Counted from the stretch's first letter, positions 20,391 to 57,700 are shown. The stretch is DNA of 64,000 nt from Actinomycetes bacterium (GCA_024637035.1 JAGXFW010000026.1:181600-245599), one strand, 5' to 3'. Notes: a model not told the origin generated them from the letters alone. Program-made: numbers and translations.

Positions 20391-20449
20391 ATAATTAATA
20401 GAAATGGCGCAATGGCGAATGCCTGCAGAGCCGCGAGAAGGGTGGACCG

Positions 20450-24749: not shown

Positions 24750-24750
24750 G

Positions 24751-27654: not shown

Positions 27655-28452
27655 GTGACTGCTGAGATGCCAGCGTACGATTCGAGTAGCCCGACGAAAC
27701 GGGCGACGCTCACCACCGTGATCGCTCTATGGCTTCTCTGGGCCCTGTTGCTGTTCGGCGGTTTCGCGCTCGGCTCCGCGGCGGACGATCCCACCCACCG
27801 CATGCCCACTTGGACCCGCATGGCGTCGTCGCTGGCTTTGGTCGCCGCAGGGTGGGCGTGGTTCGCGCTATCGCGTTCGGGGGGCGGTCGGGGCGATCAG
27901 GGCAGCCCGCGCTTCCCACTGTTCTTGGCGCTCGGCATGACCGCCGGCCTCGCAGGAGACCTCATCCTGGCCGGGCTTCTCCCTGGAGGGGAGAACGTGC
28001 TCGCCGGGATCGCGGCCTTCGGCATCGGGCACGTGCTGTACATCGCCGCGATCCTCCACTGGGCGGGAGCCCACGGTCTCAACCGAGCCGGCCCGCGCTG
28101 GGCCTCGTTCGCGGCGTGGTGGGTGATCGGCGCGCTGGCCTGGTACCTGGTCGTATTCAGAGGGCAGGAGGCAACCGTGCTCCACTGGGCGGCGCTCCCC
28201 TACGCGCTTCTGCTGGCCGGCACCTGCGGCGCCGCCACCGGGGTGGCGGCGCAGACCCGCACCTTCGTACCGATGGCTGTGGGCGCAGCCCTGTTCCTGG
28301 CCAGCGACCTCATCCTGGCCGCGCAGCTCTTCAACGACCTCGACTTCGCACTGATCGGCGACGTGATCTGGCTCACGTATGGGCCGGGCCAGATGCTGAT
28401 CGTGTACACGAACGCGGTAACGCGAGAACCACGCCGCGGGGCCATCACCTGA
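27655..28452 (+). CDS. YhhN/lysoplasmalogenase-family membrane protein
   Basis: Eight hydrophobic segments with conserved GD...LA and FxxGHxxY-like motifs (GIGHVLYIAA) typical of the YhhN family. Confidence 0.5.
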   Translation: MTAEMPAYDSSSPTKRATLTTVIALWLLWALLLFGGFALGSAADDPTHRMPTWTRMASSLALVAAGWAWFALSRSGGGRGDQGSPRFPLFLALGMTAGLAGDLILAGLLPGGENVLAGIAAFGIGHVLYIAAILHWAGAHGLNRAGPRWASFAAWWVIGALAWYLVVFRGQEATVLHWAALPYALLLAGTCGAATGVAAQTRTFVPMAVGAALFLASDLILAAQLFNDLDFALIGDVIWLTYGPGQMLIVYTNAVTREPRRGAIT

Positions 28453-29443
28453 ACCGAGGCAGCACCTCATCGCCCAGTAGCTCGATAGCTCGGCGCGGGT
28501 CGGGGCCGAGCGGCCCGCCGAGCGACACGTGGGTCACGCCAGCCTCGAGCAGGCCTTCGATCTGCTCGACGACCTCACCGGACGTGCCCACCAGAGCCAG
28601 CCCGAGCATGCGGTCGGTGACTCGGGAAGCCGCGCCCCGATAGTCGCCGGCGACGATACACTCCCTGATCGGCGCCACGTCGGCAGGAGTCACACCGATC
28701 GTGTCCAGCGCCTCTTGCTCCAGGTAGGGGACGAAGTAAGCCACGATCTCCCGGATGGAATCGCGGGCGGCGTCCCCACTCTCGGAGATCGATACCCAGG
28801 CGCAGCCGGCGATCTCGAAGTCGGCCGGGTCGCGCCCGGCGCGACGGAGACCGTCGAAGATAGGCGCCAGCATCAGCGAAGCAGAGGCGGGCGGGGTCAC
28901 CATGGGAAGGCTGCCGTCGCACACCTCTCCGGTCATGCGAAGAAACTCAGAACCCCAACCCCCACCGTAGATCGGCAGGTCGCGGCGGCGTGGCTCGAAG
29001 CGTAGGTAGGCCTGCTCGGTCCAGGGGAAGGCATCGCCCCCGGCGACCACGCCGCCCTTTAGGAGGGCTCGCACCTTCTCCACCGCCTCCCGGGTACGGG
29101 CGATCATGTCTTCCGCGGGGATGCCCAGCCACCCGATCATCTCGTCGGTGTGCGGCCCGAGACCCAGGATGGCCCGCCCTCCGGAGAGCTCGTCGAGTGT
29201 GGCGAAGTATGACGCTATCTCCGAAGGTTCGGTGGTGTAGGGATTGGTGCCCACCGTCGCGACCTTGATCGTCGACGTGGCCGCCGCCACCGCCGAGCAG
29301 AAAGCCCAGCTGTTCTTGCGAAAGGTGTCATGGGGGAACCAGCAGGCGTCGAAGCCCTTTGCCTCAGCGAGTACGGCCCATTCGACCAGAGTGCGCGCCG
29401 GCGCCAAATGGTCCAGGAAGCGGATGCCGAAGGTGGAGCTCAT
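28445..29443 (-). CDS. LLM-class (luciferase-like) flavin/F420-dependent oxidoreductase
   Basis: TIM-barrel LLM motifs (FDACWFPHD...; GTNPYTTEP; GRAILGLGPH). It is the last gene of the long minus-strand cluster; the 4-nt overlap at 29440-29443 is with the upstream gene. Confidence 0.75.
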   Translation of the reverse strand: MSSTFGIRFLDHLAPARTLVEWAVLAEAKGFDACWFPHDTFRKNSWAFCSAVAAATSTIKVATVGTNPYTTEPSEIASYFATLDELSGGRAILGLGPHTDEMIGWLGIPAEDMIARTREAVEKVRALLKGGVVAGGDAFPWTEQAYLRFEPRRRDLPIYGGGWGSEFLRMTGEVCDGSLPMVTPPASASLMLAPIFDGLRRAGRDPADFEIAGCAWVSISESGDAARDSIREIVAYFVPYLEQEALDTIGVTPADVAPIRECIVAGDYRGAASRVTDRMLGLALVGTSGEVVEQIEGLLEAGVTHVSLGGPLGPDPRRAIELLGDEVLPRFR

Positions 29444-30507
29444 CGCCTTCGAGTCGGCGATTCTCCCCGCGGCTTGGGCCGGTTGCCTTCAGGCACAGCC
29501 AGCGCTGCCACCTCGGTCATGTGTATGCTGCCACCCGAAACCACACACACCACCTTGCCGTAGCCGGCGCCGCCGGCAAGCGCGCAGGCCACCGGGCACG
29601 CGCCGGCGCCTTCCGCGATCACATGATTGCGCTCCGCCATTAGCAAGAGCGCCGCCGCAACCGCGGATACCTCGGCCACCAGGCTCCCCGCGATCACGGG
29701 TCGTGCTCGTTCGAACATCTGGGGGAAGACCGTGGGGCTCCCGATCCCATCGACGAACGAAGATGTGTAGTCGATCTCGACGGGCTTCCCCGCATCGAGT
29801 GCCGCGGCGAGGGGGGCGGCTCCCGCCACCTCGGCCGCGTAGACCTTGATCTCGGGGCGCAGAGCGTGGGCGGCGGCGGCCACGCCGCAGGTGAGGCCGC
29901 CGCCGCCCCAGGGGGTGATGATGGCATCGGCGTCGGGTAGGTCTTCCAGTATCTCGAGTGCGATGGTGCCGTTGCCCGCCATGACCCAGGGGTCGTCGAA
30001 GGCGTGGATGAAGGTGCCTTCCACCCCGGGATAGGCGTGCTCCTCGAAGGCGCGCCACCACTCCTCGAACGGCACCCGGATCACACGGCCGCCCATACGC
30101 TCAACGGCGTCGGTCTTCACTTTGGGGGCCGATTCGGGGGCGACGACCGTGCAGGGGATGCCACGCTCACGTGCCAGCCAGGCGACTCCCTGGGCCATGT
30201 TGCCCGCGGAGGCGGTGACCACGCCGCGGGCGAGTGCCTCGGGCGGTGTCGCGGCCATGACGGCGGCGGCTCCGCGGATCTTGAACGAACCGATGGGCTG
30301 CAGGTTCTCGAGCTTGAGGTAGATCTCGGGGCCGTCGCCGGCCGGTCTGGTGGCGTCCAGGCGCACCAGCGGCGTGCGGATGGCCGACGCGCCGCCGGGC
30401 GGGCCGATGATGGCCAGGCGGGCGGTCTCGATCTCGGCGAGGGTAGGCATGACGGTCGCCGGACCGATCGCCGGGCCGAGGCCACCTGGAGCGGCCGCCC
30501 GACTCAT
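29440..30507 (-). CDS. PLP-dependent threonine/serine dehydratase-family enzyme (fold type II)
   Basis: PLP lysine in SFKIRGAA, plus TASAGNMAQGVA and the glycine-rich GGGGL loop; no C-terminal ACT domain. Confidence 0.75.
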   Translation of the reverse strand: MSRAAAPGGLGPAIGPATVMPTLAEIETARLAIIGPPGGASAIRTPLVRLDATRPAGDGPEIYLKLENLQPIGSFKIRGAAAVMAATPPEALARGVVTASAGNMAQGVAWLARERGIPCTVVAPESAPKVKTDAVERMGGRVIRVPFEEWWRAFEEHAYPGVEGTFIHAFDDPWVMAGNGTIALEILEDLPDADAIITPWGGGGLTCGVAAAAHALRPEIKVYAAEVAGAAPLAAALDAGKPVEIDYTSSFVDGIGSPTVFPQMFERARPVIAGSLVAEVSAVAAALLLMAERNHVIAEGAGACPVACALAGGAGYGKVVCVVSGGSIHMTEVAALAVPEGNRPKPRGESPTRRR

Positions 30508-31484
30508 CGCTTCACCAGCGTGCCGACGCCCCGATCACGCGCCAAGGCATAGACGTGTGCGGCCGCGGCCACGTCCTCCACCGCGATGCCCAAGGACTTG
30601 AACAGGGTGATCTGGTCAGACGAGGTCCTTCCCGGCCGCAGACCGGCCACCACCTCACCGATGGTCCCCCGGACATGCTCCGGCCCTATCGCCCCGGAGG
30701 CCACGGCCGAGCGGTACTCGGCCGACTCGTTCTCGGCGGCGGTGCGATCGTCGAGGAAGAGCGCGGAACGGGCCATGGCATCGTCGTCGACCTCGCAGGC
30801 GCCGGGCCCTCCGATCACGTTCACATGGGCGCCGGGTGCAAGCCAAGCGCCCTCGACGACCGGGGAGGTAGCCGTGGTCGCCACCACCACGAGATCGGCG
30901 TGCCGCACCGCCTGCTCCACACTGTCGACCGCGGTGATGGGAAAGGAGAAACGCGGACCATGCTCCTCGGCGAAGCGGCGGGCGGTCTCGCCGGTGCGCG
31001 AGGCCACACGCACGCTGCGCAGGTCGCGCACGGCGGCCATCGCATCCAGATGGTAGGCGGCCTGCACGCCCGCACCCACCAGGGCCAGGTCACCGGCGTC
31101 CTCACGCGCCAGCAGCCGGGTGGCCAGGGCCGAGACGGCCGCCGTACGGATGCCGGTGAGAGCCGATGCGTTGACCAGGGCCAGATTCTCGCCCGTCTCG
31201 GGGCTCATGAGCAAGACAGCGCCCTGGTGCGAGTCGATACCGAGTTCCCGGTTTCCTGGGAACACGCTGATCACCTTGATCCCGTAGGCGGGAGCGCGGC
31301 CGCCCAGAAAAGCGGGCATGAGACCCATGAGGCCGGCGGCCTTCTCCGGAGCCACCACCGACCGGAGCGGCATGTGGCAGTCGCCGCGGGCCAGGGCGAT
31401 GAAGGCCTCCTCCATCACGGGGATGCAGTCCTCGATCGAGAGCAATCCCTCAACATCTGCGTCGCCGAGCACGAGCAACTCCAC
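30504..31484 (-). CDS. Ornithine cyclodeaminase / mu-crystallin family protein
   Basis: N-terminal dimerisation region, Rossmann GAGVQAAYHLDAMAAV; family contains OCD, pyrroline-2-carboxylate reductases and SbnB-like enzymes. Confidence 0.8.
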   Translation of the reverse strand: MELLVLGDADVEGLLSIEDCIPVMEEAFIALARGDCHMPLRSVVAPEKAAGLMGLMPAFLGGRAPAYGIKVISVFPGNRELGIDSHQGAVLLMSPETGENLALVNASALTGIRTAAVSALATRLLAREDAGDLALVGAGVQAAYHLDAMAAVRDLRSVRVASRTGETARRFAEEHGPRFSFPITAVDSVEQAVRHADLVVVATTATSPVVEGAWLAPGAHVNVIGGPGACEVDDDAMARSALFLDDRTAAENESAEYRSAVASGAIGPEHVRGTIGEVVAGLRPGRTSSDQITLFKSLGIAVEDVAAAAHVYALARDRGVGTLVKR

Positions 31485-31496
31485 GGGAGCCTCCTT

Positions 31497-32489
31497 TCAG
31501 CGCACCTCAGAGGGGCCGAAGTATCCGCCGATCCGGCGCCATTCGTCGTCGGTCAGATCGAGTTCGAGCGCACGCAGGGCCGGCTCGAGCTGATCCGGGC
31601 GCCGCGGACCCACGATCGGCGCGGTGACACGCGGGTGTCGCACGACCCAAGCCAACGTCAGCGTCGCCATATCGACGCCCCGCTCCGCCGCGTGGGCGCG
31701 GAGCGCGTCGAGGGCATCGTGCACCCGCTCATTCAGATAGCCTCCGTAAGGCTCGGGGCGCAGGGTCATTCGCGAGCCCTCGGGGAACGGCTCGCCCCGG
31801 CCGTACTTGCCGGTGAGCCATCCTCCGGCCAGGGGACTGAACGGCGTGTAGCCCAATCCTTGGTCGGCCAGGAGGGGGAACAGCTCGGCCTCGTCGTTCC
31901 GCTCGAGCAGGCTGAACGAGTTCTGCACCCACTCGAAGCGAGCCCAGCCGTGCTTGTCGCTGAGCCAGAGCGCTTTCGCGGTGAGCCAGGCGGGCATGTT
32001 GGAAGCCCCGATGTAGCGCACTTTGCCCTGTCGCACCAGGTCGTCCAGCGCCCAGAGGGTCTCATCCAACGGCGTCGTGGGGTCGGGTTCGTGGATCAGA
32101 TAGAGATCGAAGTGTTCGGCGCCCAGGCGCCGCAGGCTGGCCTCCACCTGCCGCATGATGTGCCGCCGGGAGAGCCCCCAGTCGTTGGGACCTTCGCCCA
32201 CCGGATTGAACACCTTGGAGCTCAGGAGCAGCTGATCGCGTGCAGCCGGGCCCTTCCGCGCGAGCCAGCGACCGATCATCTCCTCGCTGCGCCCACCGCC
32301 GTAGGCGTCGGCCGTATCGAACACGTTGACACCGGCCTCGAAGGCGGCGTCCATGAGCGCGCCCGCCTGCTCCTCAGTCTCACCCTGTCCGAAGAAGGCC
32401 GGGGAACTGCCGATGCCTCCGAAGTTGCCACAGCCCAGTATCACCGAGGAGACCTTGACCCCCGTGCGTCCCAATCTCACGTACCGCAT
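31497..32489 (-). CDS. Aldo/keto reductase
   Basis: MRYVRLGRTGVKVSSVILGCGNFGG...DTADAYGGGRSEE; start set at the internal M (32489); the ORF-track N-terminal extension is Arg-rich junk. Confidence 0.8.
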   Translation of the reverse strand: MRYVRLGRTGVKVSSVILGCGNFGGIGSSPAFFGQGETEEQAGALMDAAFEAGVNVFDTADAYGGGRSEEMIGRWLARKGPAARDQLLLSSKVFNPVGEGPNDWGLSRRHIMRQVEASLRRLGAEHFDLYLIHEPDPTTPLDETLWALDDLVRQGKVRYIGASNMPAWLTAKALWLSDKHGWARFEWVQNSFSLLERNDEAELFPLLADQGLGYTPFSPLAGGWLTGKYGRGEPFPEGSRMTLRPEPYGGYLNERVHDALDALRAHAAERGVDMATLTLAWVVRHPRVTAPIVGPRRPDQLEPALRALELDLTDDEWRRIGGYFGPSEVR

Positions 32490-32496
32490 GTCCACT

Positions 32497-33300
32497 CTAC
32501 GTTCGCCCCGCTTTCTCGGCGGACGTCGGCGGACACGGCTTGAACGCGACGAGTCCTGTGCCCAACAGCTCCTCCTTGGAGCGCCGAACATGATCCAGCG
32601 CCGTCCGATTGGCTGCCTCCGGGTCGCGCGCCTCGATGGCGTCGAAGATAGCCTGGTGATCCACCACCACGCGCGCGACGCGCGAGGGGAGCGCCATGAT
32701 GGCTCGACGCGCGTCGAGCACGTGATCTTCAAGGTCGTTCAGGATCTGGGCGATGATCTGGTTGCCACCGACCTCGCGAATGATCCTGTGGAACTCGGAA
32801 TCCGCTGCCACCAGGGCTTCGTGATCCTGAGCCTCCACTGCCGCCTTCATCGCGGTGAGAGCGGACTCGAGCCGGCCCACGCCCCGGTCGGTGACGTGTG
32901 TCGCCGCAAGTTCGGCCACCTTCACCTCCAGCGCCTCATGCACTTCGAGCACCCGCACCACTTCCTGACGATGACCGAGGAGCCAGTGGAACCAATCGTC
33001 GGAGAGGGTGGTCACCGGCCGCTCGGCGACGTATGTGCCGCGCCCGGGTGCTACGCGCAGCACTCCCATGGTCTCCAAGGTGCGGATGGCTTCGCGCAGC
33101 GACGTGCGACTGACCGACAGCAACTCCATCAACTCGCGTTCGGGCGGCAATCTGACCCCCGGGGCCAGACTGCCATCGGAAACGAGTTTCTGGATCTGTT
33201 CCATGGCCCCGTCCGAGAGCCGGCGAGGCTTGACCGGCTTGAAGATCTTGTTCACAAGCACTGCTCCCGATCGGCGGCTTCTAGACCAGCGCTGCGTCAA
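32497..33300 (-). CDS. GntR-family transcriptional regulator (FadR/FCD subfamily)
   Basis: Winged HTH LPPERELMELLSVSRTSLREAIRTLETMGVL followed by a helical FCD domain. Confidence 0.8.
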   Translation of the reverse strand: MTQRWSRSRRSGAVLVNKIFKPVKPRRLSDGAMEQIQKLVSDGSLAPGVRLPPERELMELLSVSRTSLREAIRTLETMGVLRVAPGRGTYVAERPVTTLSDDWFHWLLGHRQEVVRVLEVHEALEVKVAELAATHVTDRGVGRLESALTAMKAAVEAQDHEALVAADSEFHRIIREVGGNQIIAQILNDLEDHVLDARRAIMALPSRVARVVVDHQAIFDAIEARDPEAANRTALDHVRRSKEELLGTGLVAFKPCPPTSAEKAGRT

Positions 33301-35954
33301 CCCCCCAAGTAGGCTTCCCTGATCGCAGCGTCGCCCGCTAGATTGCAGGCTTCATCGGCAGCGACGATCCGGCCCGTTTGGAGCACATAACCTCTGTGCG
33401 CGATGTTCAGAGCCATACTGGCGTTCTGCTCCACCATGAAGATGGTGGTGCCCAAGTCCTGGTTGATCTTCTGGATGATCTGGAACACCTGCTGCACGAG
33501 GATGGGCGAGAGTCCCATAGAAGGCTCGTCCAGGCAGAGTAGACGCGGCTCTGTCATGAGCGCCCGCCCGATGGCCAGCATCTGCTGCTCGCCACCTGAT
33601 AGCGTAGCCGCCTTCTGGTCCCGGCGTTCGTGCAGGATGGGGAACTGCTCGAACGCCCGCTCGATGCCCCGCTTGATCATGGCCTGATCGTTGGTGGTGT
33701 AGCCGCCGATCTTCAGATTGTCCAGCACGGAGAGCAGCGGGAACACCCGCCTGCCCTCAGGCACCAACGCGACGCCACTCGAGACGATGCGCCCTGTGGG
33801 CCACGCTTCGATGCGCTGACCATCGAACTCGATGGTGCCGGCGCTGGCGCGGACGTTGCCCATGATGGTCTTGATCGTCGTGCTCTTCCCGGCTGCGTTG
33901 GCTCCCAATAGCGTGACTATCTCGCCCGAGTAGACGTCGAGGTCCAAACCCTTCAGCACACTGATGGGACCGTAGCCTGCCTCGACGCCTTTGAGGCTGA
34001 GCAGGGGCGAGCCTGAGACGAGCGAAGGCTTGGAGGCCACCTCGCAATCCTCCTGCTCGCCCAGATAGGCGGCGATGACTTTGGGATGTTCCTGCATCTC
34101 CTTCGGAGTGCCTTCCGCCAGCACCTGCCCCTTGTTCACCACCACGATGCGGTCGGAAACGTTCATGACCACCGGCATCTGGTGCTCGACCAGTATCACG
34201 GTGTAGCCGCTGTCGCGGAGCTCCCTGATCTGGCGCGTGATCTCGCCCACTTCCGAGGGATTCATCCCGGCTGCGGGCTCGTCGAGCAACAGCAGGTTGG
34301 GTCGGAGGGTCATGGCGCGCGCGATCTCTACCCGCCGGCGGTCGGCGTAGCTGAGGGCTGTCACATAGTCGTCCTTGCGTTCGGCGACCGCGCGGTTGAA
34401 AAACGTCAGATTGCGGATGCCTTCCGCCTCGGCGACACCCTCCTCCCGATTGACGGCGCGAGTTCGAGCAATCGACCGAAAGATGCCGGCCTTGAGCCAG
34501 GGGTGAGCCCCCGCCATGACGTTGTCCAGGACGGAGAGCTGCGGAAATATGCGGATGTTCTGAAAGGTCCGCGCCAGACCGCGCGAAGCGATGCGATCGG
34601 GCGAGTTGCCCGTCAGGTCGTCGTCGCGGTAGGTGACCGTGCCGCTGTCGGGCTTGTAGATGCCGGTGATCAGGTTGAAGAGCGTGGTCTTGCCCGCGCC
34701 GTTCGGCCCGATGACTCCGAGGATCTCGCCTTCGCGGACCTCGAGTGTCACGTCGTCGACGGCAACGACCCCACCGAAGCTCTTGCTGAGACCCTTCACC
34801 GAAAGGAGCACGTCGCCGATCTTTGGCGCGTGGCTCTGGTTCGTGTCCTCACGCGCCGGGGTGATCGAAGGCGCGCCCCCACCTTCCGATGTGGACGAGA
34901 TACCCGGCGGCGGCGCACCCATGGCCTCGTCGATCGAGGTCCTACTCTTCCGCGCCCTGGCGCGCAACAAGCCCTGGGGCAACAGGACGATGACCACGAG
35001 GAGGATCAGACTCAGGATGGCCATGCGCCACTGGACCAGACTGGGGAAGTATCGCAAGAACTCCCCGAGGAACGTGTAGACCACGGCGCCCACAACGACA
35101 CCCACTGGGTTGCCCGAACCGCCCAGGATGATGATCAGGTAGACCGATACGAGCTCGTCGAGGCTGAAGTTCTTGTCGAAGACGCCCGCCTGGAACGCGG
35201 CGAGCAGCGCACCGGCAAGACCGATGATCGCCGCGGTCGTCAGAAACGAGAACACCCGGTAGCGGGGCAGGTTCACGCCCATGCTCGAAGCCGTGATCTC
35301 GTCGTCGCGGATGCCGGCCCAAGCTCGGCCGGTGCGGGAGTACAGCAGGCGCACCGAGATGAAGAGGACCGCCGCTGCGAAGATCCAATAGAAGTAGTAG
35401 TACTGTATCGGGCTCTTGATGGTGAGCCCGAACAACGCCGGCCGGGCTACGCCGGAGATGCCGTCCGGCCCGTTGGTGAGACCGTCCAGATTGAGTATCA
35501 GGCGCTGCACGATGTAGAAGAAGCCCAGGGTCACGATGGCAAGGTAGTCTCCGCGCACCCGCAGACTGGGGATCCCGATGACGGCGCCGAAGATGACGGC
35601 GACAAGCACGCAGATGGGCAGCGAAGGCCAGAATCCCAGGTGGATGCCGAGTTGGGCCGAGTTCAGAACCGCATAGGTGTAGGCCCCGATAGCGTAGAAG
35701 GCGATGAACCCCATATCGAGCAGGCCCGTGATGCCCGCGAGGATGTTGAGGCCGTTGCCCAGGATGACGTAGATGGCCACGGTCACCCCGACCCGGGTCC
35801 AGTAACTATTCTGGACCAGGAGGGGGAAGACGACGACAGCGAGAGCGAAGATGGCAAAGCGGAACTGGATCGGGATCCGGGAGGTCACCCGGGTGACCGG
35901 AGCGAGGCCGTGGGCCAGGAAGCCGCCGGCGCGCGTCTTGAACGATTCGGCCAT
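33297..35954 (-). CDS. Fused branched-chain-amino-acid-type ABC transporter: permease (LivM-like) + ATPase (LivG-like) + ATPase (LivF-like)
   Basis: N-terminal 8-9 TM permease, then two complete nucleotide-binding domains (Walker [13 protein letters not shown] and [12 protein letters not shown]; signature LSGGEQQML; Walker [11 protein letters not shown] and LLCLDEP). Confidence 0.8.
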
Positions 35955-35964
35955 GACTGCTCCC

Positions 35965-36873
35965 TCAGACCTTCACTGGGATCTGCTTACCCAGCAGTCC
36001 GGCGGGTCGGAACAGGAGCAGGACGATGAGTAACCCGAATGCGATGACGTCTCTGTAGGCATACGAGATATACGTGGCCCCTAGAGTCTCGGCGCTGGCC
36101 AGGATCAGCGCGCCCAGCACTGCGCCCCGCAAGTTACCGATGCCGCCCAAGACTGCTGCCGTGAATGCCTTCATGCCGAGGCCGAAGCCCATGGCGAAGT
36201 CCACCTGAGTGTAGTACAGACCTGTCAGCACACCCCCGATGCCGGCCAACATGGCGCCAACCAGGAATGTGGCCGAGATGATGCGGTTGACCGAGATACC
36301 CATGTAGGAAGCGGCTTCGCGGTCCTGGGCAGTGGCCCGCATGGCCTTGCCCATCTTGCTGCGCCCCATGAAGATCTCGAGGCCGATGAGGGTGATGATC
36401 GTCACCACCACGACCACGACCCGGCTCGCCGAGACGGTCACGTCGCCGATGTGCAGGGCCCAGGAATCCGGAAGCAGCAGATCGGTGCGAACGGGGCGGG
36501 CGCGGAACTTGGTGAGCACCCCCACGACGTTCCGCAGAAGGATGGACATGGCAAGCGCGCTGATGAGCGGAGCCAGACGCGCCGCGTTGCGCAAGGGCCG
36601 ATAGGCGAAGAACTCGATGCTCACGGCGAGCGCGCCACATACGGCCATCGCAATAACCAGCATCATGGCGATGATGAGGATGGGGTTCGCCGTGAGCTGA
36701 TCGCCCTGCAGGAACTGTTGCTGGACGAGGTATCCCACGAAACCCCCGATCATGAAGACCTCGCCATGGGCGAAGTTCAGCATGGTCAGGATGCCGTACA
36801 CCATGGAATAACCCAGGGCGAACAGTGCGTACACAGAGCCGAGTGTAAGCGCATTGACGACTTGTTGAGTCAT
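35965..36873 (-). CDS. livH: Branched-chain amino acid ABC transporter permease (LivH-like)
   Basis: 302-aa polytopic protein with LivH-type motifs (FAHGEVFMIGGF...; GIGNLRGAVLGALIL). Confidence 0.85.
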   Translation of the reverse strand: MTQQVVNALTLGSVYALFALGYSMVYGILTMLNFAHGEVFMIGGFVGYLVQQQFLQGDQLTANPILIIAMMLVIAMAVCGALAVSIEFFAYRPLRNAARLAPLISALAMSILLRNVVGVLTKFRARPVRTDLLLPDSWALHIGDVTVSASRVVVVVVTIITLIGLEIFMGRSKMGKAMRATAQDREAASYMGISVNRIISATFLVGAMLAGIGGVLTGLYYTQVDFAMGFGLGMKAFTAAVLGGIGNLRGAVLGALILASAETLGATYISYAYRDVIAFGLLIVLLLFRPAGLLGKQIPVKV

Positions 36874-37020
36874 GTGTGAACTGTCCTCCCCCAGATCGAG
36901 ATGGTTGGTTCCGCCAGCTCGGCGGCCGCGACCTGCGTGGGAAGCACGCCGCGTTCCCCCGCCGATCCCAGCCGGGGCGGCGGCGCCGCCCCGGCTGGGA
37001 CTACTACAAGTTGACCCGCC

Positions 37021-38304
37021 TTACGGCAGGGTCACCATCTTCACCGGAACGAAATCGCTGCCCTTCACCTGAAGGACGGTGATCCCACCGCCCACCAAGT
37101 CACCCTCAGGGGTGAACGCGATGGGGAATCCGAGGATGCCGGTGTAGTTCGAAGCGCTGAGGGCAGCGTTGACGGCCGCGCGGTCGATCTTGCCGTCCAC
37201 GACGCCTACGGACTTGATGGCCTCGAGCAGCACGTTGGTCGCCTCATACGACTGGGCGGTGAACGCGCTCGTCACTTGGTACTTGGCGATGTACTTGTCG
37301 AGGAACGGCTTGGCCGAATCCAAGGTCTCGGGCAGAGGGCCGAGAACGGTGGAGTACATCCCTTCGGTCGCGCCGCCGGCTGCCGTCATGAGTTCGCCGT
37401 CGTGGGTGCCGTCGGCTCCCATCATCTGGACCTGGAAGCCCATGCTCTTCATCTGCTTCGCGATGGCCGCGGCCTGAGGCGGATTGGGAAGGGGGACGAA
37501 CAGGACGGTGGGATTCATCTCCTTGACCTGCGTCAACACGGTCGCGAAGTCTTTGTCGGAGCCCGCGATCTGGGCACGCTTGACTGTCACGCCGCCGGCC
37601 GTCAAAGCTTCCTCGGCTTGATCGGCCAGGCCCTTGGCGTAGGCCTCACCGTCATCGATGATGAACACGCTCTCGGCCTTGAGGTCGTCGATCATGAACT
37701 TGGCGATCGAGGGACCCTGCACGCCGTCGCTCGGGCAGATGCGGTGGAACGACGAGAAGCCGAGCGTGGAGAGATTGACGTTGGTGGCCGACTGGGTGAT
37801 CAGGGCCACGTTCGCGTCGCTGAGGATCGGCAGCGCCGCCTGGACCGCGCCGCTGGTCATCGGGCCTACGACTCCCACGACCGATTCGTCAGAGGCGAAC
37901 TTCTCGGCGATCGTCGCGGCTTTGGCCGGATCGGCACCGTCGTCGCCTACTTCGACCGTGAACGTCACGCCCGGCATCGCGCCGGAAGCATTGAAGTCAT
38001 CAACAGCCATTTGGACGGCCTGGAGTGCGTCTGTGCCGATCTTGGCAAGGTCGCCCGTGAACGGGCCTGCCCCACCGATTTTGAAAGTGTATTCCTCCGT
38101 CGGCGCCGCGGTCGTGTCCGTCGAAGCTGCTGTGGTGCCGGTCGCGTCTGCTGTGGTGGTGGTCGTGTCGCCGCAGGCCGTGAGCGCGAGCCCAACGACC
38201 ATCAGGAGCGCCAGTACTGCCACCAGGTTCTTTGATACTTTCACTGCGTGTACCCCCTCGTCCGTGAACACATCAGGTGTTAGGAATTGTCGATATTCAA
38301 CCAT
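37021..38304 (-). CDS. ABC transporter substrate-binding lipoprotein (LivJ/LivK-like, branched-chain amino acid type)
   Basis: Lipobox LTACG, Thr-rich linker, then type-I periplasmic binding fold (KIGGAGPFTGDLAKIG...); start may be the GTG near 38238. Confidence 0.8.
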   Translation of the reverse strand: MVEYRQFLTPDVFTDEGVHAVKVSKNLVAVLALLMVVGLALTACGDTTTTTADATGTTAASTDTTAAPTEEYTFKIGGAGPFTGDLAKIGTDALQAVQMAVDDFNASGAMPGVTFTVEVGDDGADPAKAATIAEKFASDESVVGVVGPMTSGAVQAALPILSDANVALITQSATNVNLSTLGFSSFHRICPSDGVQGPSIAKFMIDDLKAESVFIIDDGEAYAKGLADQAEEALTAGGVTVKRAQIAGSDKDFATVLTQVKEMNPTVLFVPLPNPPQAAAIAKQMKSMGFQVQMMGADGTHDGELMTAAGGATEGMYSTVLGPLPETLDSAKPFLDKYIAKYQVTSAFTAQSYEATNVLLEAIKSVGVVDGKIDRAAVNAALSASNYTGILGFPIAFTPEGDLVGGGITVLQVKGSDFVPVKMVTLP

Positions 38305-38402
38305 CCCCGGCGTCCCTAGATGCTCGGCCCTCCCTTCCTCGCGAAGCCCGAATCGCCGCCCTGACTCTCACGCTGCGCCTTTCTGGAGTCGTGCATCGTG
38401 CA

Positions 38403-38789
38403 CTACCCGGCCAAGCGACAGACAGCGGAGATCTCCACCAGGGCGTCCTTGGGCAGACGAGCCACCTGCACGGTCTCCCGCGCCGGGGGTTCCCCGGGGA
38501 AGAAGCGGCCGTACACTTCGTTGAAGATCGGAAAATCGTTCATGTCGGCCAGGAAACAGGAGGTCTTGACCACGTGGGCCAAAGTACCTCCGGCCGCCTC
38601 GACCACCGCCGCCAGGTTGTGGAGCACGCGGTCGGTCTGCTCCATGATGCCACCCGCCACCAGTGAACCCGTCGCCGGATCGAGCGGTATCTGTCCGCTC
38701 ACGAACAGAAGACTGCCCGAGCGAACAGCCTGCGAGTACGGTCCGATCGCGGCCGGCGCACGATCCGTATGGATGATCTCTTTGCTCAA
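38403..38789 (-). CDS. ridA: RidA (YjgF/TdcF) reactive enamine/imine deaminase
   Basis: APAAIGPYSQAV...PARETVQVARLP; 128 aa; typical chorismate-mutase-like RidA motifs. Confidence 0.85.
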   Translation of the reverse strand: MSKEIIHTDRAPAAIGPYSQAVRSGSLLFVSGQIPLDPATGSLVAGGIMEQTDRVLHNLAAVVEAAGGTLAHVVKTSCFLADMNDFPIFNEVYGRFFPGEPPARETVQVARLPKDALVEISAVCRLAG

Positions 38790-40039
38790 GCTGACAGATC
38801 CTCCTCGAAGACGGCCTTCAAAGCATCCAGAGCCAGGTCCACGTCGTCAAGCGTGTTGTAGAAATGCGGAGCCAGGCGGATCACCGGGCCCCTCGCGGCC
38901 GCCAGGATCCCGCGCTTGAGCAGGAGGGCCTCCACGCGGTGAGATTCGCCCTCAGGGCACACGAAGGCGGTGCTCGGAGTCTTGCGCCCCGGGTCATCGA
39001 TGCCGTGGAGTCGGAAACCCCGGGCCCGACCACCTTCGATGAGGCGTCGAGTGAGGTGCTCGGTCCAGGCGGCGATCGCGTCCACGCCGATCTCGTTGAT
39101 CACGGCCATGCCGGCCCGAGAGATATAGGCGTTGATCACGGGGGGTGTTCCCGTGTCGAAGCGGGCAGCCGTGGGCGCCCAGTCCAGCCCCCGCACGTCG
39201 AACGCGAACGGGTTTGCTCGTCCGAACCAGCCGGTCACGGCCGGTTTCAGATGTTCAACCAGGCCGGGGCGCACGTAGAGGAAGGCGATGCCAGGCACAC
39301 CCAGCAAGAACTTCAAGTTGCCCGAGGCCAGGATGTCGATGTCCATAGCCTGCACATCGACCTTGGTGACGCCCAGACTCTGATAGGCGTCGACATACAG
39401 CAGGGCTCCTTTTTCATGAGCCTTGCGGGCGATCGCGGCGACATCCTGTACGTAGCCATTCTGGTAGTACGCATGACAGGCGGACACCAGGAGCGTCCGC
39501 TCGTCGATGACTCCGTCGTAGTCTTCCGTGTAGACGATGTCGTCGCGGACGGGCACCCAGTCGAGCTCGAGTCCGTATTTGGCGTGCGCCTGCCACACGT
39601 GAGCCACGGAGGGGAACTCCGCTTCGGTCGTGACCACCCTTCGCCGCTCACCGCTGAGGTCGAGCGCGCTCGCAAGGCTGGCGGTGGCCTCACTCACCGA
39701 GCTGGAGACGGCGATGTCGTCGGGCGAGGCGTTGATGAGCCGGGCGAACTCGACTTTGGCCTTGTAGGTCTCAGCCATCCACGCGTCCCAATCCATGCCG
39801 GCCTTGTTCCACGAGTCCAGATAAGCTTCGGCTGCCTCTCGCGTCACGTCGAGCTGGGGAGCCTGGGAACAGTTGTTCATCAGCACCAGGGACTTGAGAA
39901 GAGGGATGCGGCGACGCCAGGCGGCGATGTCGTACGCGGGCTGGGCGTTCGGAGAGCTTTCCACGACGTCCGTGCGATCGGCGACCATGGGGTCGGCGTC
40001 CACGCGCTCGGCGTGGGTGTGACCGGTGACCGCGCTCAC
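38786..40039 (-). CDS. Aminotransferase class V-fold PLP-dependent enzyme
   Basis: IPLLKSLVLMNNCSQAP N-terminal region and SGNLKFLLGVPGIAFL (SGHK-like PLP-Lys region); exact subfamily unclear. Confidence 0.6.
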   Translation of the reverse strand: MSAVTGHTHAERVDADPMVADRTDVVESSPNAQPAYDIAAWRRRIPLLKSLVLMNNCSQAPQLDVTREAAEAYLDSWNKAGMDWDAWMAETYKAKVEFARLINASPDDIAVSSSVSEATASLASALDLSGERRRVVTTEAEFPSVAHVWQAHAKYGLELDWVPVRDDIVYTEDYDGVIDERTLLVSACHAYYQNGYVQDVAAIARKAHEKGALLYVDAYQSLGVTKVDVQAMDIDILASGNLKFLLGVPGIAFLYVRPGLVEHLKPAVTGWFGRANPFAFDVRGLDWAPTAARFDTGTPPVINAYISRAGMAVINEIGVDAIAAWTEHLTRRLIEGGRARGFRLHGIDDPGRKTPSTAFVCPEGESHRVEALLLKRGILAAARGPVIRLAPHFYNTLDDVDLALDALKAVFEEDLSA

Positions 40040-40248
40040 CCGCTGATCCGCCCTATCCCCACGACGTGCCCCCCCTGACTGGATTCAATGATGAGATCTT
40101 CTCGCCGCCGAACCCACCCTGCGATTCTCTTCCGGCAGAGCAACGAACACCGCCGCTCGTGGTAGACAGATTGGACCGCAGCATACGACAGCGACGAAAC
40201 CCTGTCAACGCGCTCCTGTACGGGGTCCAGTGAGTTCCGACCGCCCGT

Positions 40249-41283
40249 CTACCCCAGAGCTGCCCGAGCCGCCCGCAGGGCGGCGTCAACTCCGGATGCT
40301 CCCACACCATGGTGCGTGACGAGGCGCACGCGAGTCGACCCCACTGCGCCCGCACGCACCCCAGCCGCCGCCAGGCCGGCCACGAACGAGGCCGCGTCCA
40401 GGCCATGCGCGACGACTTCCGCGAACACCATGTTCGTCTGCACGCACTCCAGATCCACATCCAGACCAGGAATGCCGGCCAACCCCTCGGCTAGGCGCCG
40501 TGCGTTCTCGTGATCCTCCGCAAGACGCTCCACCATGGTCTCGAGGGCCACGATGCCGGCCGCCGCCAGCACGCCCACCTGCCGCAGGCCTCCGCCCAGC
40601 ATCTTGCGGGCGCGACGGGCCTCGGCGATCCAATCGGCCGGCCCGGCCAGCATCGACCCCACCGGGGCGCAGAGACCCTTGGAGAGACAGAACATCACGG
40701 AATCCGCATGGGCCGCGATCTCAGCCGCGGGCACTCCCAGCGCCACGGAAGCGTTGAAGAGCCGGGCGCCGTCGAGGTGCACCGCCAGACCGCCGCGATG
40801 CGCCGTCGCGCAGAGGTCGGCCATCAGGTCGAGGGGAGCCACGATGCCACCCCCGGAATTGTGCGGGTTCTCCAGACACAGCAGGCGGCTGCGGGGAAAG
40901 TGCACGTCGTCGGGACGGATCGCGGTCTCCACCTGCTCCGGCCGCAGCAGACCCTTGACGCTCTCGAGTGGGCGGGCCTGGACACCGGAAAGGACGGCTA
41001 GGCCGCCCACCTCCGCGTCGTACACGTGGGAGGTGAGGTCGCAGATCACTTCGTCGCCGCGACGCGTGTGAACGAGCACGGCGATGCCGTTGCCCATGGT
41101 GCCGCTGGGCACGAAGAGGGCCGCTTCCTTGTCCACGCGCGCGGCGGCAAGATCCTCCAGACGGCGCACGGTGGGATCCTCCCCGTACACGTCGTCGCCG
41201 AGTTCGGCCGTAGCCATGGCCCGCAACATCTCTGGCGTGGGGAGAGTGACCGTGTCGCTGCGCAGGTCGACGACGGAGCTCAC
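40249..41283 (-). CDS. ltaE: Low-specificity L-threonine aldolase
   Basis: [20 protein letters not shown]...[11 protein letters not shown]...PSGTMGNG...; 4-nt overlap with the upstream AOR gene. Confidence 0.85.
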
Positions 41284-43160
41284 CCCTCGGCGCCTCTATC
41301 TACCCGCAGGCCCAGCTCGGCCAGCTTGGCCGGCGTGGGCAGGCCGGTGGCCACATCCCAGCCGCGCGCTTCGTAGTATTCGTCGAGCATCTGGTCGAGA
41401 TCGACCGTCGCCCCGGACGAGGGGGTGCCGGTCGGACCCAGGGGCTCCTCAAGGAAGCGGCGCGGCAGGGTGTCGTCCTTACGGGTGACTCCCTCGCGGG
41501 CGATGAACAGCCGCTCCAGGTTGACGATGCGCTCACCCGCCTGCCGCACCTCCTCGCCGGTCATGTCCCAGCCGGTCGAGGCGTTCAGGAGGTCGGCGGT
41601 CTCCTGCCAGTCGAGCACCTCCATGTTGTTGTAGGTGTTCTTGCAGACTCCGAGCGAGTCGCAAACGGCGGCCATCTCCTCGAAGTGCTTGACCACGCGG
41701 CCCTTGCCCTTGTGTTCCAAGCGGAAGGCCGACTCCGCGACTCCGTACCGGCGGATGCCCTCCTCGGCATCGCCGGAGAACTCGAACCAAGGCTCGGAGC
41801 GCAGGTGGTCGGCCCCCCTGCTGGAGACCGCGTTGCCGAGAGCGTAGGCCTTGACGGTTCGCGGGTCGGCCTGGAACACCTCGAGTCCCTTGGAGTGCAT
41901 GGCGATCTCCTCGGAGCCGCCGCCCACCCGCTCGGCCGCCGCGCGTACCCCGTCGGCCAGCACGTCACCGAACCCCTCCCGTCGCATGATCTTCTCGATC
42001 AGCGTCAATACCGCTTCCATGTTCCCCCAGGCGAGATCGAGACCGTCGGTATCGGCAGGCGTCAGGATGCCCCGCTCCTGGCACTCCATCGTCCAGGAGA
42101 TCACCTCGCTGAGGGCGATCGCGTCCATGCCGTAGCGATTGGCCAGGTCGACGCAGCGCAGGGCGAAGGCAAGGTCACCGTTGCCGATGCGCGAGGTGAA
42201 CCCGGCGAGGGGCTCGTACTCCGGCCCCTCGAGCTTGAGCCCGGGGAAGCGGGGATCGTCCACCACCAGGAAGCGGCTGCAGGGGATGGTGCACGAAAAG
42301 CACGCCTTGCTCTTCACCTTGAACCGCGCTTCGATCGTCTCGCCACTCACCTGGTCGGCGTATTCGAAGCGGCCCTCCTTGAAATGCCGGGTGACGATGC
42401 CACCGATGCCGTTCATCGCCTTCACCAGCTTGGTCGTGCCGAGGCGCACCCTGATCTCGTACTCCTCGTGAGAGTAGATACGCTCGTCGACCATGTCGAT
42501 GAGCCGTTGGAACCCTTGCATGTCGGCCACCGGCACCGTCCCGGTGCCCCGCACAGCCACGGCCTTCAAGTTCTTGGAGGCCATGAGCGACCCCATGCCC
42601 GTGCGGGCGGCGGCCCGCACCAGGTTGGTGAAGATCCCGGCGAAACGCACGCCGTTCTCCGCCGCGGGACCGATCACCGCGGTCTGCACGTCGCGATCGC
42701 CAAGCTCCGCCCGGATGGCCTCGGTGGCCTCGGTGACGTCCAGTCCCCAGAGGCCGGAGGCGTCGCGCAGTTCCACCCAATGATCCCAGATCACTAGATA
42801 GACCGGGCTTTCGGCACGGCCTTCCACAATGAGTTGATCCACCCCAGAGAACTTGAGCTCGGGGCCGAAGAACCCGCCGGCGTTGGAGTCGCCCAGGATG
42901 CCTGTTTGCGGCGACATGCCGCTCACGTTGAAACGGGAGCCGCCGGGGAAGAGCGACCCCGCGAGCGGTCCCACCCCAAAGATCAACTTGTTCTCAGGGG
43001 CCAGGCCGTCGGTGTGGGCCGGCACCTCGTCCCAGAGGCGCTTGACGTTGAGGCCTCGTCCGCCCAGGAAGGCGCGGGCTTCGGCCGGGTCGGTGGGCTG
43101 CCTGGTGATGCTCCCGCTCGTCAGATCCACGCGCAGGATGGAGCCGCCGTAGCCGTTCAC
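41280..43160 (-). CDS. Aldehyde:ferredoxin oxidoreductase (AOR family, tungsto-/molybdopterin-dependent)
   Basis: AOR N-terminal domain [13 protein letters not shown]...GGRGLNVK...[20 protein letters not shown] and the large C-terminal pterin/4Fe-4S domain. Start set at GTG 43160, preceded by GGAAAGGGGGA; the ORF-track 764-aa version has an Arg-rich false extension. Confidence 0.85.
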
Positions 43161-43849
43161 TCGGTCCCCCTTTCCTTCTGCGTGGGTCTCTCGCCGCGCG
43201 GCGCCCCTGCGGGCGGGCGGTTCGCCCGGAAGCGGGCGGGCGCTAGACCTGAGGCGCCCGTAGGTTCGGGGTGGGCGCCGGAAGCGGCATCGGCGCCCTG
43301 AGCACCGACGGGACCGCCGCCCGATTCGCCGCCGCCGGATGTGTCGTTTCGGGTATCGCCCGTGCGCCCACCGAGCTGCCGCAGGGCCAGAGTCTCGCGC
43401 CGGTCCCGAGCTTGTTCGTCGACACCGCCCCAGCGTATGGCCCCCGGAGCGCAGCGTTTCACGCAGGCGGGGTCGCCGTCGCAGAGATCGCAGATGAGAG
43501 GTAGGCCGGTGGTTGGATGCATGATCACCATGCCGAAGGGACACCCGTCGGCACAAGCGCCGCAGGCGATGCATTCCTCCTCGTTCAGCCGCACCACGCC
43601 CAGAGAGGCGTCGCGACTCAAAGCACCGGCTGGGCAGGCTTTCACGCAGCCCGGCCGCCGGCAGAGCCTGCAGACCGAAGGCACGTCGAGGCCCTCGGTC
43701 TCGATCTTGGTGACCTTGATGCGGGCTGCACCCGTGCCGAAGCCACCCTCGTGCGCGGCCACGCAGGCCAGCATGCAGGCTTTGCAGCCGCTACATATGT
43801 CGCTCCGCACCAGAATGCGTCCCGCGCGCCCCATGTGCTCCACCGTCAC
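43157..43849 (-). CDS. 4Fe-4S ferredoxin-type electron-transfer protein (AOR partner)
   Basis: Four Cys clusters (CSGCKACMLAC; CRLCRRPGCVKACP; CIACGACADGCP; CDLCDGDPACVKRCAP); GTGA overlap with the AOR start; Gly/Ser-rich C-terminal tail. Confidence 0.75.
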   Translation of the reverse strand: MTVEHMGRAGRILVRSDICSGCKACMLACVAAHEGGFGTGAARIKVTKIETEGLDVPSVCRLCRRPGCVKACPAGALSRDASLGVVRLNEEECIACGACADGCPFGMVIMHPTTGLPLICDLCDGDPACVKRCAPGAIRWGGVDEQARDRRETLALRQLGGRTGDTRNDTSGGGESGGGPVGAQGADAASGAHPEPTGASGLAPARFRANRPPAGAPRGERPTQKERGTE

Positions 43850-44086
43850 CTTTCAATCGTCCGCAGCGGCCGAGCAGCCGGCTCCACGATCACGCCTCCA
43901 GACGCACACGTGCCGATGGCCGCCACACCCGCTGGTGCGGTCCGAACATCAGACCACAGGATAAGGAACGCCCGGAATGCTGTCAATGGGCATGCCCCCG
44001 GTACACCCGCCGTGGCCTTCCCCGGGCTGCCTGCCGGCATGGTCGCCACAATCACCGCTTTGTTGCGATAGGCTTGCTATTGAGAG

Positions 44087-53987: not shown

Positions 53988-54395
53988 CTACGGAAAGATC
54001 AGCCGCAACCCCGGGAAATAGGTGCGGTGGCGGGCGGGATCTCGCGTCACCAGGGTCATCCGTTCCACGACGGCATGTGCGCCGATGAAGAAGTCGGGAA
54101 GGGGAGAGAGCTTCTCCCCTCCTGCGCGCCGGTAGCGAAGGAAGGACGTGCCGGCCAAGAAAGCGGCCTCCCAGGGAATCGGTAGACGAGCGAACGCTCC
54201 AGCCGGCAAAGCCTGCTCGACGTCTTCGATGCGCTCGAACCCGGCCGAGACTTCCGCGTAGATGACCGGGTTGATGGCCAGCATCGAGCGCTCGGCGCAC
54301 GCGGCCAGAGTGGCGGCGGACCACTCGTACCACGTGGGGTCCTCGGTGAGCACGTCCAGCAGGACGCTGGAATCCACCAGGACCGGCGTGCTCAC
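53988..54395 (-). CDS. vapC: PIN-domain toxin VapC
   Basis: VLVDSSVLLDVL...INPVIYAEV...LVTRD PIN signature; 4-nt overlap with the upstream antitoxin gene. Confidence 0.75.
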   Translation of the reverse strand: MSTPVLVDSSVLLDVLTEDPTWYEWSAATLAACAERSMLAINPVIYAEVSAGFERIEDVEQALPAGAFARLPIPWEAAFLAGTSFLRYRRAGGEKLSPLPDFFIGAHAVVERMTLVTRDPARHRTYFPGLRLIFP

Positions 54396-54661
54396 CCCTC
54401 ACCCCGCGTCAGCGCCAAGATCTCGTCTGTGGTCATCTTCACCGTGGCGCGCCCGGTCAGGTGACGCACCAGATCGTCGCCGCGAGCGGACCGCCCGGGT
54501 TCCCTCTCCAAGTACACCCGGTCGCCGTCTACCTGGAACCGGACCTCGGTATGGGGGAGCAGCCCGAACAACTCGCGTATCTCCTGAGGGATGGTCACCT
54601 GACCCTTCGTGGTTATGCGCATGCCGGCCTCGCCAGGAGTAGGAGTAATACTGGTATGCAT
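54392..54661 (-). CDS. vapB: AbrB/MazE/SpoVT-type antitoxin (VapB)
   Basis: MRITTKGQVTIPQEIRELFGL swapped-hairpin motif; start at an internal M. Confidence 0.65.
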   Translation of the reverse strand: MHTSITPTPGEAGMRITTKGQVTIPQEIRELFGLLPHTEVRFQVDGDRVYLEREPGRSARGDDLVRHLTGRATVKMTTDEILALTRGEG

Positions 54662-55007
54662 CTTACCGCCCTTCCCTACCTGTGTCGACACCTGCGTAGC
54701 GACCGCGCCACGCCCTCTTCCCGGGGGTATGCCCCGTCAGAGGTCCAACGATACGCCGGGGTCAAGAGCGTCGATGCTAGCCGACAGATAGGGCGCAGGG
54801 CATACGCAGAAGGTCACAGGATGGCGCCGGGGGGTTCGGCGCCATCCTGTGTGAGGGCGGGTGCACGGGCGGGTCGGGGCGAAGTAGGCCGCGGTGCGCC
54901 GGCGCGGCTCGGACTCGTCGCCCGACGCGGACCCGCCCGGCTCCTCGCGGAGACGCGCGTCGGGCGGCAGTGCGCCGCACCGCGACGCACTGCGCGGCGC
55001 CCGCGCC

Positions 55008-57580: not shown

Positions 57581-57700
57581 CGTGATGCCCCCGCGTTCTC
57601 AGCCATGCCTACTCCTTGTAGTTTGATCCAGGCGGATCTATATGATCCAGTCCCGGCCCGCGAAGGGCCCGGGATAACCGTTCGTATCGGCCGCGTCTCC

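Follow-up and report, generated by a model that had tools for sequence, protein, structure and literature searches.

The stretch of Actinomycetes bacterium DNA analysed here (GCA_024637035.1 JAGXFW010000026.1:181600-245599; 64,000 nucleotides, hereafter the window) carries on its minus strand a pair of genes predicted to encode an aldehyde:ferredoxin oxidoreductase (AOR) and its polyferredoxin small subunit. The AOR catalytic gene occupies positions 41280-43160 and encodes 626 residues from a GTG at 43160, which is preceded in the sequence by a GGAAAGGGGGA-ccga ribosome-binding site. The ferredoxin open reading frame (ORF; 43157-43849) ends in a TGA that shares the four nucleotides GTGA with the AOR start codon. 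The small-subunit ORF ended in an overlap with the AOR start in 5/5 loci examined. In the window, the ferredoxin ORF is open back to a GTG at 43849; its likelier start is the ATG at 43834, with GGTGGAG 4 nt upstream, giving a protein of 225 residues. A second GTGA, also read directly from the sequence, joins the AOR stop codon to the GTG start of an aldolase gene. Small subunit, large subunit and aldolase would thus be translationally coupled through two GTGA overlaps, in a trio that heads a cluster of transporter and catabolic genes.

The start codon of the AOR gene was examined against a longer mechanical ORF (41280-43574, 764 residues from an ATG at 43574), which contains the GTG at 43160 internally. 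The additional 138 residues include 43 arginines (31%), lie in a different frame of the ferredoxin gene and are missing in all homologues; the start at ATG 43574 was ruled out for these reasons. The Pfam match, the structural matches and the homologues all begin at the GTG: AFOR_N starts at residue 7, four solved AORs align from residue 1-3, and the 120 nearest homologues are 619-649 residues long and cover 97-100% of the 626-residue form. An earlier note on this DNA had proposed the GTG start with its ribosome-binding site and overlap, and had dismissed the arginine-rich extension as false; both proposals hold. It had also presented the gene as a typical case of mis-annotation. However, the identical 626-residue protein is already present in NCBI- and JGI-derived records (P0001/P0002), as is the identical 225-residue ferredoxin in public records. 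Since these records use the 626-residue form, the AOR gene is not mis-annotated there.

A search of 12.3 kb gave two promoter-like sites where 1.2 were expected; these are matches to a consensus, not proof of promoters. The first lies between divergent genes, upstream of the ferredoxin gene, a position that fits the start of an operon. The second, downstream of the aldolase gene, suggests that the ferredoxin-AOR-aldolase trio and the genes that follow may be separate transcription units, which is an inference only. No convincing intrinsic terminator was detected between the genes (2 found, 5.4 expected). Scanning the whole window with Rfam gave no family at gathering thresholds and no molybdenum cofactor riboswitch, and a permissive scan of 39900-44200 returned one chance-level snoRNA match only.

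The catalytic subunit contains both AOR domains, AFOR_N (aa 7-206, 1.3e-73) and AFOR_C (aa 222-618, 1.2e-129). It matches four structures end to end: 1aor (5.6e-123), the AOR of Pyrococcus furiosus; 9mqx_D (1.5e-121), which we take to belong to Acetomicrobium mobile WorABCSL; 9g7j (6.7e-106), the AOR of Clostridium autoethanogenum; and 8c0z_A (2.8e-100), the AorB of Aromatoleum aromaticum. FOR, WOR83, BamB and WOR5 scored well below the AORs (415 bits for 1aor, 243 for BamB, 192 for WOR5). The cofactor ligands were inspected in a MAFFT alignment that combined the window protein, the four references, 120 homologues from the database and 20 loci at greater distance. The [4Fe-4S] ligands Cys288, Cys291, Cys295 and Cys494 (P. 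furiosus numbering, used throughout) are found in the window protein and, without exception, in the 120 close homologues. The pterin and magnesium contacts Arg76, Asn93, Gly95, Arg182/Ala183, Asp343 and Asp489 are also conserved, and the second-shell residues Thr243, Glu311, Tyr312, Glu313 and His448 are kept; Asp338 is replaced by Asn, as in 8c0z, 9mqx and 9g7j. The comparison with characterised AORs that the earlier note had called for thus found every Fe-S and pterin ligand.

The small subunit contains four cysteine motifs for 4x[4Fe-4S], with all 16 cysteines invariant in 48 homologues. Its best structural matches are AorA (8c0z_C, 5.5e-26), the WOR5 small subunit (6x6u_B, 5.3e-25) and 9mqx_E (8.3e-22). 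As these entries are the partner subunits of tungsten enzymes, the protein is homologous to such subunits. An AlphaFold model (mean pLDDT 58.7, a low value) was used for the pattern of helix and disorder only. It places a helix at residues 140-155 (pLDDT ~70-76), in a region that keeps an AR.KRE.LA-like stretch throughout the clade, followed by about 70 residues of G/A/R/P-rich disorder with a short helix over ARFRAN. Only a Thermoleophilia-like subclade has tails of 85-120 residues after the AIRW motif, and these are not uniform in length or sequence. Although otherwise divergent, they keep EPxGASG[LV]xPxx[FY]RA[ND]RP, and the motif EPTGASGLAPARFRANRPP is found in 4/5 loci and in P0121/123/126/129/131. 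The codon-position GC of the tail (0.79/0.72/0.76) shows no position signal and is uninformative on coding. For AorA and A. mobile WorS, polymerisation of WorSL units into a nanowire depends on the equivalent C-terminal helix (PMC10413684, PMC12318220). An appendage placed immediately after this helix could plausibly influence assembly, although this is speculation. Separately, the motif EPTGASGLAPARFRANRPP resembles a short linear motif.

Altogether, the pair is predicted from its domains, structural matches and conserved ligands to encode an enzyme of the AOR/WOR family that binds a tungsten or molybdenum pterin and has a dedicated 4x[4Fe-4S] subunit, as the earlier note had recognised. The genes are real, correctly delimited and of an already described, widespread class. 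Indeed, enzymes composed of WorL and WorS make up the ferredoxin-linked Class II, which accounts for 16% of ~4000 WORs and 40/92 clades (Putumbaka et al. 2026, PMC13328260). The window pair fits this class: the small subunit is encoded next to the catalytic subunit and has four [4Fe-4S] motifs, and no third-subunit gene lies in the window; the electron carrier would be ferredoxin. Among the Pfam-scanned ORFs of the window, none encodes an NAD-binding subunit (WorN/AorC), BfuABC, a MoaD-like aorD/E product or a quinone- or membrane-linked partner. The loci of close relatives likewise encode no NAD-binding, BfuABC or membrane-linked partner. Assignment to the AorABC-type Class III is not supported, as no AorC homologue was detected by Pfam and the helix of the small subunit is a low-confidence prediction followed by the tail of ~70 residues.

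The homologue search matched 7416 proteins among 8000 candidates scored. The closest genomes are metagenome-assembled genomes (MAGs) of uncultured Actinomycetota/Thermoleophilia, at 96, 95, 87 and 84% identity. Many Anaerolineae and Chloroflexota MAGs follow at ~70-80%, then MAGs labelled Bipolaricaulota, Acidobacteria and Thermotogae at 63-68%, and Bathyarchaeia and Asgard archaea at 41-52%. In 46/52 loci with an identity of at least 63%, the gene immediately before the AOR gene is that of the small subunit. For an AOR in Thermoleophilia, the searchable literature held nothing relevant. The earlier note's view of the AOR family as mostly one of archaea and strict anaerobes is not supported, given the number of matches, the bacterial MAG relatives, and the published WOR of an obligate aerobe and largely aerobic clade 83 (PMC9424855). 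Only 5/92 WOR clades have a defined physiological role (PMC13328260).

The second shell of the active site differs from that of characterised AORs. Thr243, Glu313, Tyr427 and His448 form the conserved second shell of aldehyde-oxidising members (PMC12096430, PMC13328260). Tyr427, to which aldehyde positioning is assigned, is treated as universal in known AORs (PMC12096430), the recorded exceptions being Tyr to His in AOR_Cf and ASOR and Tyr to Trp in the inactive WOR4 (PMC12096430, PMC13328260). In WOR4 and WOR5/ASOR, such changes go together with activity that is lost or altered (PMC12096430). In the window protein, the position is Ala. It is Ala in 110, Ser in nine and Gly in one of the 120 nearest homologues, and Ala as well in the eight loci closest to the clade (bacterial, Bathyarchaeia and other). 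The local alignment here (LEVFQADPR against LELPAYDPR) is ungapped, and phmmer and MAFFT agree on it. In 120/120 homologues, the residue aligned with Tyr452 is Glu; this column is made less secure by a clade-specific insertion directly after it, which follows His448. Tyr241 aligns with Leu in 119/120. Of the proton-relay tyrosines, Tyr312 is present in the window protein. The pattern of the AOR_Pf, AOR_Aa and AOR_Ca clades (AOR sensu stricto) is therefore incomplete, with Thr, Glu and His present and Ala in place of Tyr427. Because Tyr427 has no counterpart and the protein is only ~40% identical to every characterised AOR, we place it in the AOR/WOR family by sequence but do not file it as an AOR sensu stricto.

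The co-translated aldolase is a PLP (pyridoxal phosphate) enzyme of 344 residues, matching Pfam Beta_elim_lyase (2.9e-107) and, over residues 4-337, the L-allo-threonine aldolase of Thermotoga maritima (PDB 1jg8, 1.5e-117). It scored 454.9 bits with the NCBIfam GntG-family model (cut-off 230) and 312.4 bits with LtaE (cut-off 312, thus borderline). By these matches, it is predicted to be a low-specificity L-threonine/L-allo-threonine aldolase. A gap of 209 nt separates it from a co-directional gene for a class V PLP enzyme. The order ferredoxin, AOR, aldolase, PLP enzyme, RidA and Liv transporter recurs in four other genomes (L002, L007, L008, L035), with an AOR identity of 86-96%. In Anaerolineae relatives, a Liv-type ABC transporter and a GntR regulator immediately precede the pair. 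The presence of a Liv transporter beside the pair there too indicates that the link to amino-acid uptake recurs independently. A link between AOR and threonine aldolase was not found in the searchable literature.

Most clade members have a different gene downstream of the AOR, where the window has the aldolase. In 38/52 related clade loci, and in one Bathyarchaeia locus, this gene encodes a protein of ~200 residues with two TIGR04076 domains in tandem (for example L046:11891-12547, L036:11858-12439, L053:11852-12553 and L003:11873-12187). It was seen in Anaerolineae, Bipolaricaulota and Acidobacteria, has conserved Cys, contains the sequence MYELKVxVxKVLGxCTADPPMKPGDYF and belongs to no Pfam family. 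It appears to be a partner of the clade that has so far gone unrecognised. The searchable literature held nothing on the function of TIGR04076, and tblastn detected no homologue in the window (best E-value 0.036).

Several characterised systems can be compared with the window pair. Among Class II WORs, the characterised examples are P. furiosus WOR5/ASOR and Caldicellulosiruptor bescii GOR (PMC13328260). The window pair shares with them a catalytic subunit and a 4x[4Fe-4S] small subunit with no third subunit gene adjacent, and its small subunit matches that of WOR5. However, its catalytic subunit is nearer to AOR proper than to WOR5, as the bit scores given above indicate; position 427 is Ala rather than the His of ASOR, and Thr243, lost in ASOR, is kept. 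The predicted-disordered tail and the co-translation with an aldolase also set the window module apart.

A. aromaticum AorABC (8c0z; PMC10413684, PMC6365974) provides the best structural match of the small subunit, AorA, with 16 aligned cysteines, while AorB aligns end to end with the catalytic subunit, and the gene order, small then large subunit, is the same in both. The equivalents of the AorB FS0 cysteines and of Arg75, Asn92, Gly94, Arg181, Asp361, Asp504, Glu331 and His464 are conserved. By contrast, the window has no nearby AorC (FAD/NAD) or aorD/E (MoaD-like), the identity is 38%, and AorB Tyr443, corresponding to Tyr427, is Ala. The window helix, a low-confidence prediction only, is moreover followed by the long tail.

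The P. furiosus AOR is the best overall match of the catalytic subunit (40% identity), and shares with the C. autoethanogenum AOR the same domain architecture and cofactor ligands as the window protein. Both enzymes differ in being single-subunit and in keeping Tyr427, Tyr452 and Tyr241. The residues bridging the P. furiosus dimer, Glu332 and His383, are Arg/Lys and Leu in the window AOR. Finally, A. mobile WorL is 41.5% identical, and WorS is the counterpart of the small subunit (PMC12318220). The window contains no BfuABC-type bifurcating module, and Tyr423, corresponding to Tyr427, is kept in A. mobile but is Ala in the window.

Gene structure, family, cofactor ligands and an operon arrangement conserved in relatives are shown by the sequence comparisons; the metal, the electron acceptor and an aldolase-derived aldehyde as substrate are inferred. 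We favour, with moderate confidence, a heterodimeric Class II pterin oxidoreductase that oxidises the aldehyde released by the aldolase and passes the electrons to ferredoxin, as part of amino-acid catabolism. The aldolase would split L-threonine or L-allo-threonine, or another beta-hydroxy amino acid, into glycine and an aldehyde. Acetaldehyde would then be oxidised to acetate at a bis-pyranopterin centre, the metal of which is most likely tungsten. The two electrons would pass from the [4Fe-4S] cluster of the large subunit (FS0) to the four clusters of the small subunit, and from there to a soluble low-potential carrier. Given the lack of any nearby gene for an NAD-binding, bifurcating or membrane partner, this carrier is probably ferredoxin. 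A toxic intermediate would be removed and its electrons captured as reduced ferredoxin. As the aldolase is coupled to the pair within an amino-acid cluster, oxidation of the aldehyde that it releases is the likeliest role. In P. furiosus and A. aromaticum, AORs have been connected with the aldehydes that arise when amino acids are broken down (PMC6365974, PMC13328260). If this reading is correct, the locus would add a low-potential, ferredoxin-yielding branch to threonine catabolism. The aldolase coupling gives a concrete and assayable guess at the substrate, namely acetaldehyde from threonine. The general picture would be unchanged, since the wide occurrence in bacteria of tungsten/pterin oxidoreductases with polyferredoxin subunits is already established.

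Several points weigh against this interpretation. Gene adjacency is circumstantial evidence. The aldolase link is limited to one small subclade, and therefore cannot define the ancestral function of the clade. Tyr427 is lost to Ala, Ser or Gly across the clade, with Tyr452 aligned to Glu. Finally, the clade has no characterised member. A wider proposal can be made, which we regard as tentative and rather doubtful. A large WOR clade, spanning Thermoleophilia, Anaerolineae, Bipolaricaulota, Acidobacteria and others, would have a site remodelled at Tyr427 (Ala), Tyr452 (Glu) and Tyr241 (Leu), with an added clade-specific loop, and a substrate or mechanism distinct from those of all AORs studied. 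Its Thermoleophilia-like lineage would be tied to threonine aldolase, giving a previously undescribed, ferredoxin-reducing route from threonine to glycine and acetate, and the lineage-specific tail with its motif GASG[LV]xPxxFRANRPP would dock a partner or modulate oligomerisation. The clade is abundant in uncultured Chloroflexota and Actinomycetota, and its lack of a tyrosine on which the consensus AOR mechanism is built offers a good test of this mechanism. The residual interest of the locus lies in the clade-wide tyrosine loss, the aldolase coupling and the small-subunit tail, all three of which the earlier note had missed.

Three alternatives were ranked by likelihood. The best placed of them, possible but clearly less probable than oxidation of the aldolase product, is that the enzyme is a generic, broad-spectrum aldehyde scavenger for peptide and amino-acid fermentation, as has been proposed for P. 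furiosus AOR, the aldolase being one source of aldehyde or incidental. Characterised AORs indeed take broad ranges of substrates (PMC6365974, PMC12096430), the genes around the pair differ between clade members (Liv transporters, isochorismatase, saccharopine dehydrogenase), and the aldolase is restricted to the Thermoleophilia-like subclade. However, four other genomes share the 4-nt overlap with the aldolase gene, which favours stoichiometric co-expression over chance adjacency, and the remodelled second shell speaks against an unaltered generic AOR site.

An unlikely alternative is that the clade is not primarily one of aldehyde oxidoreductases, and that loss of Tyr427 and Tyr452 marks another substrate or another chemistry. 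Precedents are WOR5/ASOR, where Tyr is replaced by His and aliphatic sulfonates are the substrates, and WOR4, where it is replaced by Trp and aldehyde activity is absent (PMC12096430). The uniformity of the substitutions (Ala, Ser or Gly at 427 and Glu at 452, each in 120/120, with Leu at 241), the clade's own insertion and the tandem TIGR04076 protein that follows the AOR in most members point the same way. Yet Thr243, Glu311, Glu313, Tyr312, His448 and all cofactor ligands are retained, the best matches are by far bona fide AORs, and an aldehyde-producing enzyme is co-translated in the window. Moreover, an aromatic residue from the insertion beside position 452 could stand in for the tyrosine.

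Use of molybdenum instead of tungsten, or a mainly reductive operation from acid to aldehyde that would feed synthesis by the aldolase, is very improbable. In its favour, the window has no tungstate transporter, its MoeA is not assignable to one metal and AORs can reduce acids in vitro (PMC6365974, PMC9295118). Against it, the second-shell residues are missing from BamB and from YdhV, the one clade that prefers Mo, and both carry an additional Cys ligand (PMC12096430), whereas the window AOR keeps Thr, Glu and His and scores far higher against AORs than against BamB. Acid reduction is very slow and thermodynamically unfavourable, and the surrounding genes are for transporters and catabolic enzymes.

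Features of the ferredoxin-AOR locus and its surroundings (positions in the window).
Feature	Position	Strand	Evidence
Promoter-like site TTGACA-17-TATCCT, divergent intergenic region upstream of ferredoxin gene	43958..43986	-	Consensus match
Small subunit (WorS/AorA-like polyferredoxin), predicted, 225 aa	43157..43834	-	Pfam Fer4 families, PDB matches, 16 invariant Cys
Predicted C-terminal helix region of small subunit	43370..43417	-	AlphaFold helix aa 140-155; AR.KRE.LA-like stretch conserved in clade
Low-complexity G/A/R/P-rich small-subunit tail, ~70 aa, motif EPTGASGLAPARFRANRPP	43160..43369	-	Ends in GTGA overlap
Catalytic subunit (WorL/AorB-like, AOR/WOR family), predicted, 626 aa, GTG start	41280..43160	-	AFOR_N + AFOR_C, PDB, ligands
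Putative low-specificity L-threonine/L-allo-threonine aldolase (PLP), GTG start	40249..41283	-	Pfam, NCBIfam, PDB
Second promoter-like site TTGACA-17-TATGCT, in 209-nt gap before class V PLP enzyme gene	40180..40208	-	Consensus match
Co-directional amino-acid uptake/catabolism cluster	28445..40039	-	Pfam, NCBIfam; order conserved in L002, L007, L008, L035
Class V PLP enzyme (divergent member)	38786-40039	-	Pfam/NCBIfam
RidA	38403-38789	-	Pfam/NCBIfam
Liv-type binding protein	37021-38304	-	Pfam/NCBIfam
LivH	35965-36873	-	Pfam/NCBIfam
Fused LivM-LivG-LivF	33297-35954	-	Pfam/NCBIfam
GntR/FCD regulator	32497-33300	-	Pfam/NCBIfam
Aldo-keto reductase	31497-32732	-	Pfam/NCBIfam
OCD/mu-crystallin family	30504-31484	-	Pfam/NCBIfam
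Threonine/serine dehydratase-like PALP	29440-30507	-	Pfam/NCBIfam
F420-type luciferase-like monooxygenase (LLM)	28445-29443	-	Pfam/NCBIfam
MoeA (metal insertion into molybdopterin)	10831-12051	-	MoeA_N 3.7e-49, MoCF_biosynth 2.8e-31, MoeA_C 2.4e-19

In the amino-acid cluster, the LivM-LivG-LivF fusion is a single ORF of 885 residues, in which two ABC ATPase domains (LivG- and LivF-like) are joined to a LivM-type permease; in the relative L002, the gene call extends this fusion into the GntR/FCD regulator, giving 1155 residues. The aldo-keto reductase ORF encodes 411 residues from a TTG start and overlaps the GntR gene, with the family match beginning only at about residue 77-116. Its true start is probably ~80 codons downstream, the proteins of relatives being 330 residues long. 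The "luciferase-like" gene resembles the F420-dependent Mer.

As the earlier note had reported, moeA lies in the window, and its identity is confirmed by three Pfam domains; it is 29 kb from the AOR gene and outside its operon. No tungstate or molybdate ABC transporter was detected among the Pfam-scanned ORFs of the 64-kb window. The same note had described the chromosome as aerobic in type. This is unsupported rather than refuted: the window carries no marker of oxygen respiration, and its fatty-acid genes (AccA/D, FabF, FabG, FabD and FabH, at 1066-7002) are those of type II biosynthesis. High GC is uninformative about oxygen use.

The other genes of the window include LarA, a GlcD-FeS-CCG fusion, an MttB-family methyltransferase, PIN toxins and CWB2/NHL surface proteins. 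At 21747-26017 (plus strand), a protein of 1000 residues, in which a GlcD-like FAD-linked dehydrogenase is fused to Fe-S and CCG (heterodisulfide-reductase-like) domains, precedes a homologue of the lactate racemase LarA, in what looks like a lactate-utilisation pair. The mechanical ORFs overlap by ~350 nt, and the LarA start is probably further downstream. Large secreted proteins with NHL or cadherin/Ig-like repeats and three CWB2 domains are encoded at 44087-46153 and 46215-48203 (plus strand) and at 62051-63985 (minus strand); CWB2, a cell-wall-binding domain, is best known from clostridial surface layers, whereas the window comes from a high-GC actinobacterial MAG. The methyltransferase of the MttB superfamily (56117-58462, minus strand, 487 residues) has no in-frame stop and a GC content at third codon positions of 0.93, the maximum in the window. 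It adjoins genes for an IclR regulator and an acetoacetate-decarboxylase-family protein (58534-59352). The lowest-GC stretch of the window (18000-22000; 0.62, against ~0.66) contains few convincing ORFs besides a PIN toxin (19463-19951), and a second, PIN/MazE-like pair lies at 53988-54736.

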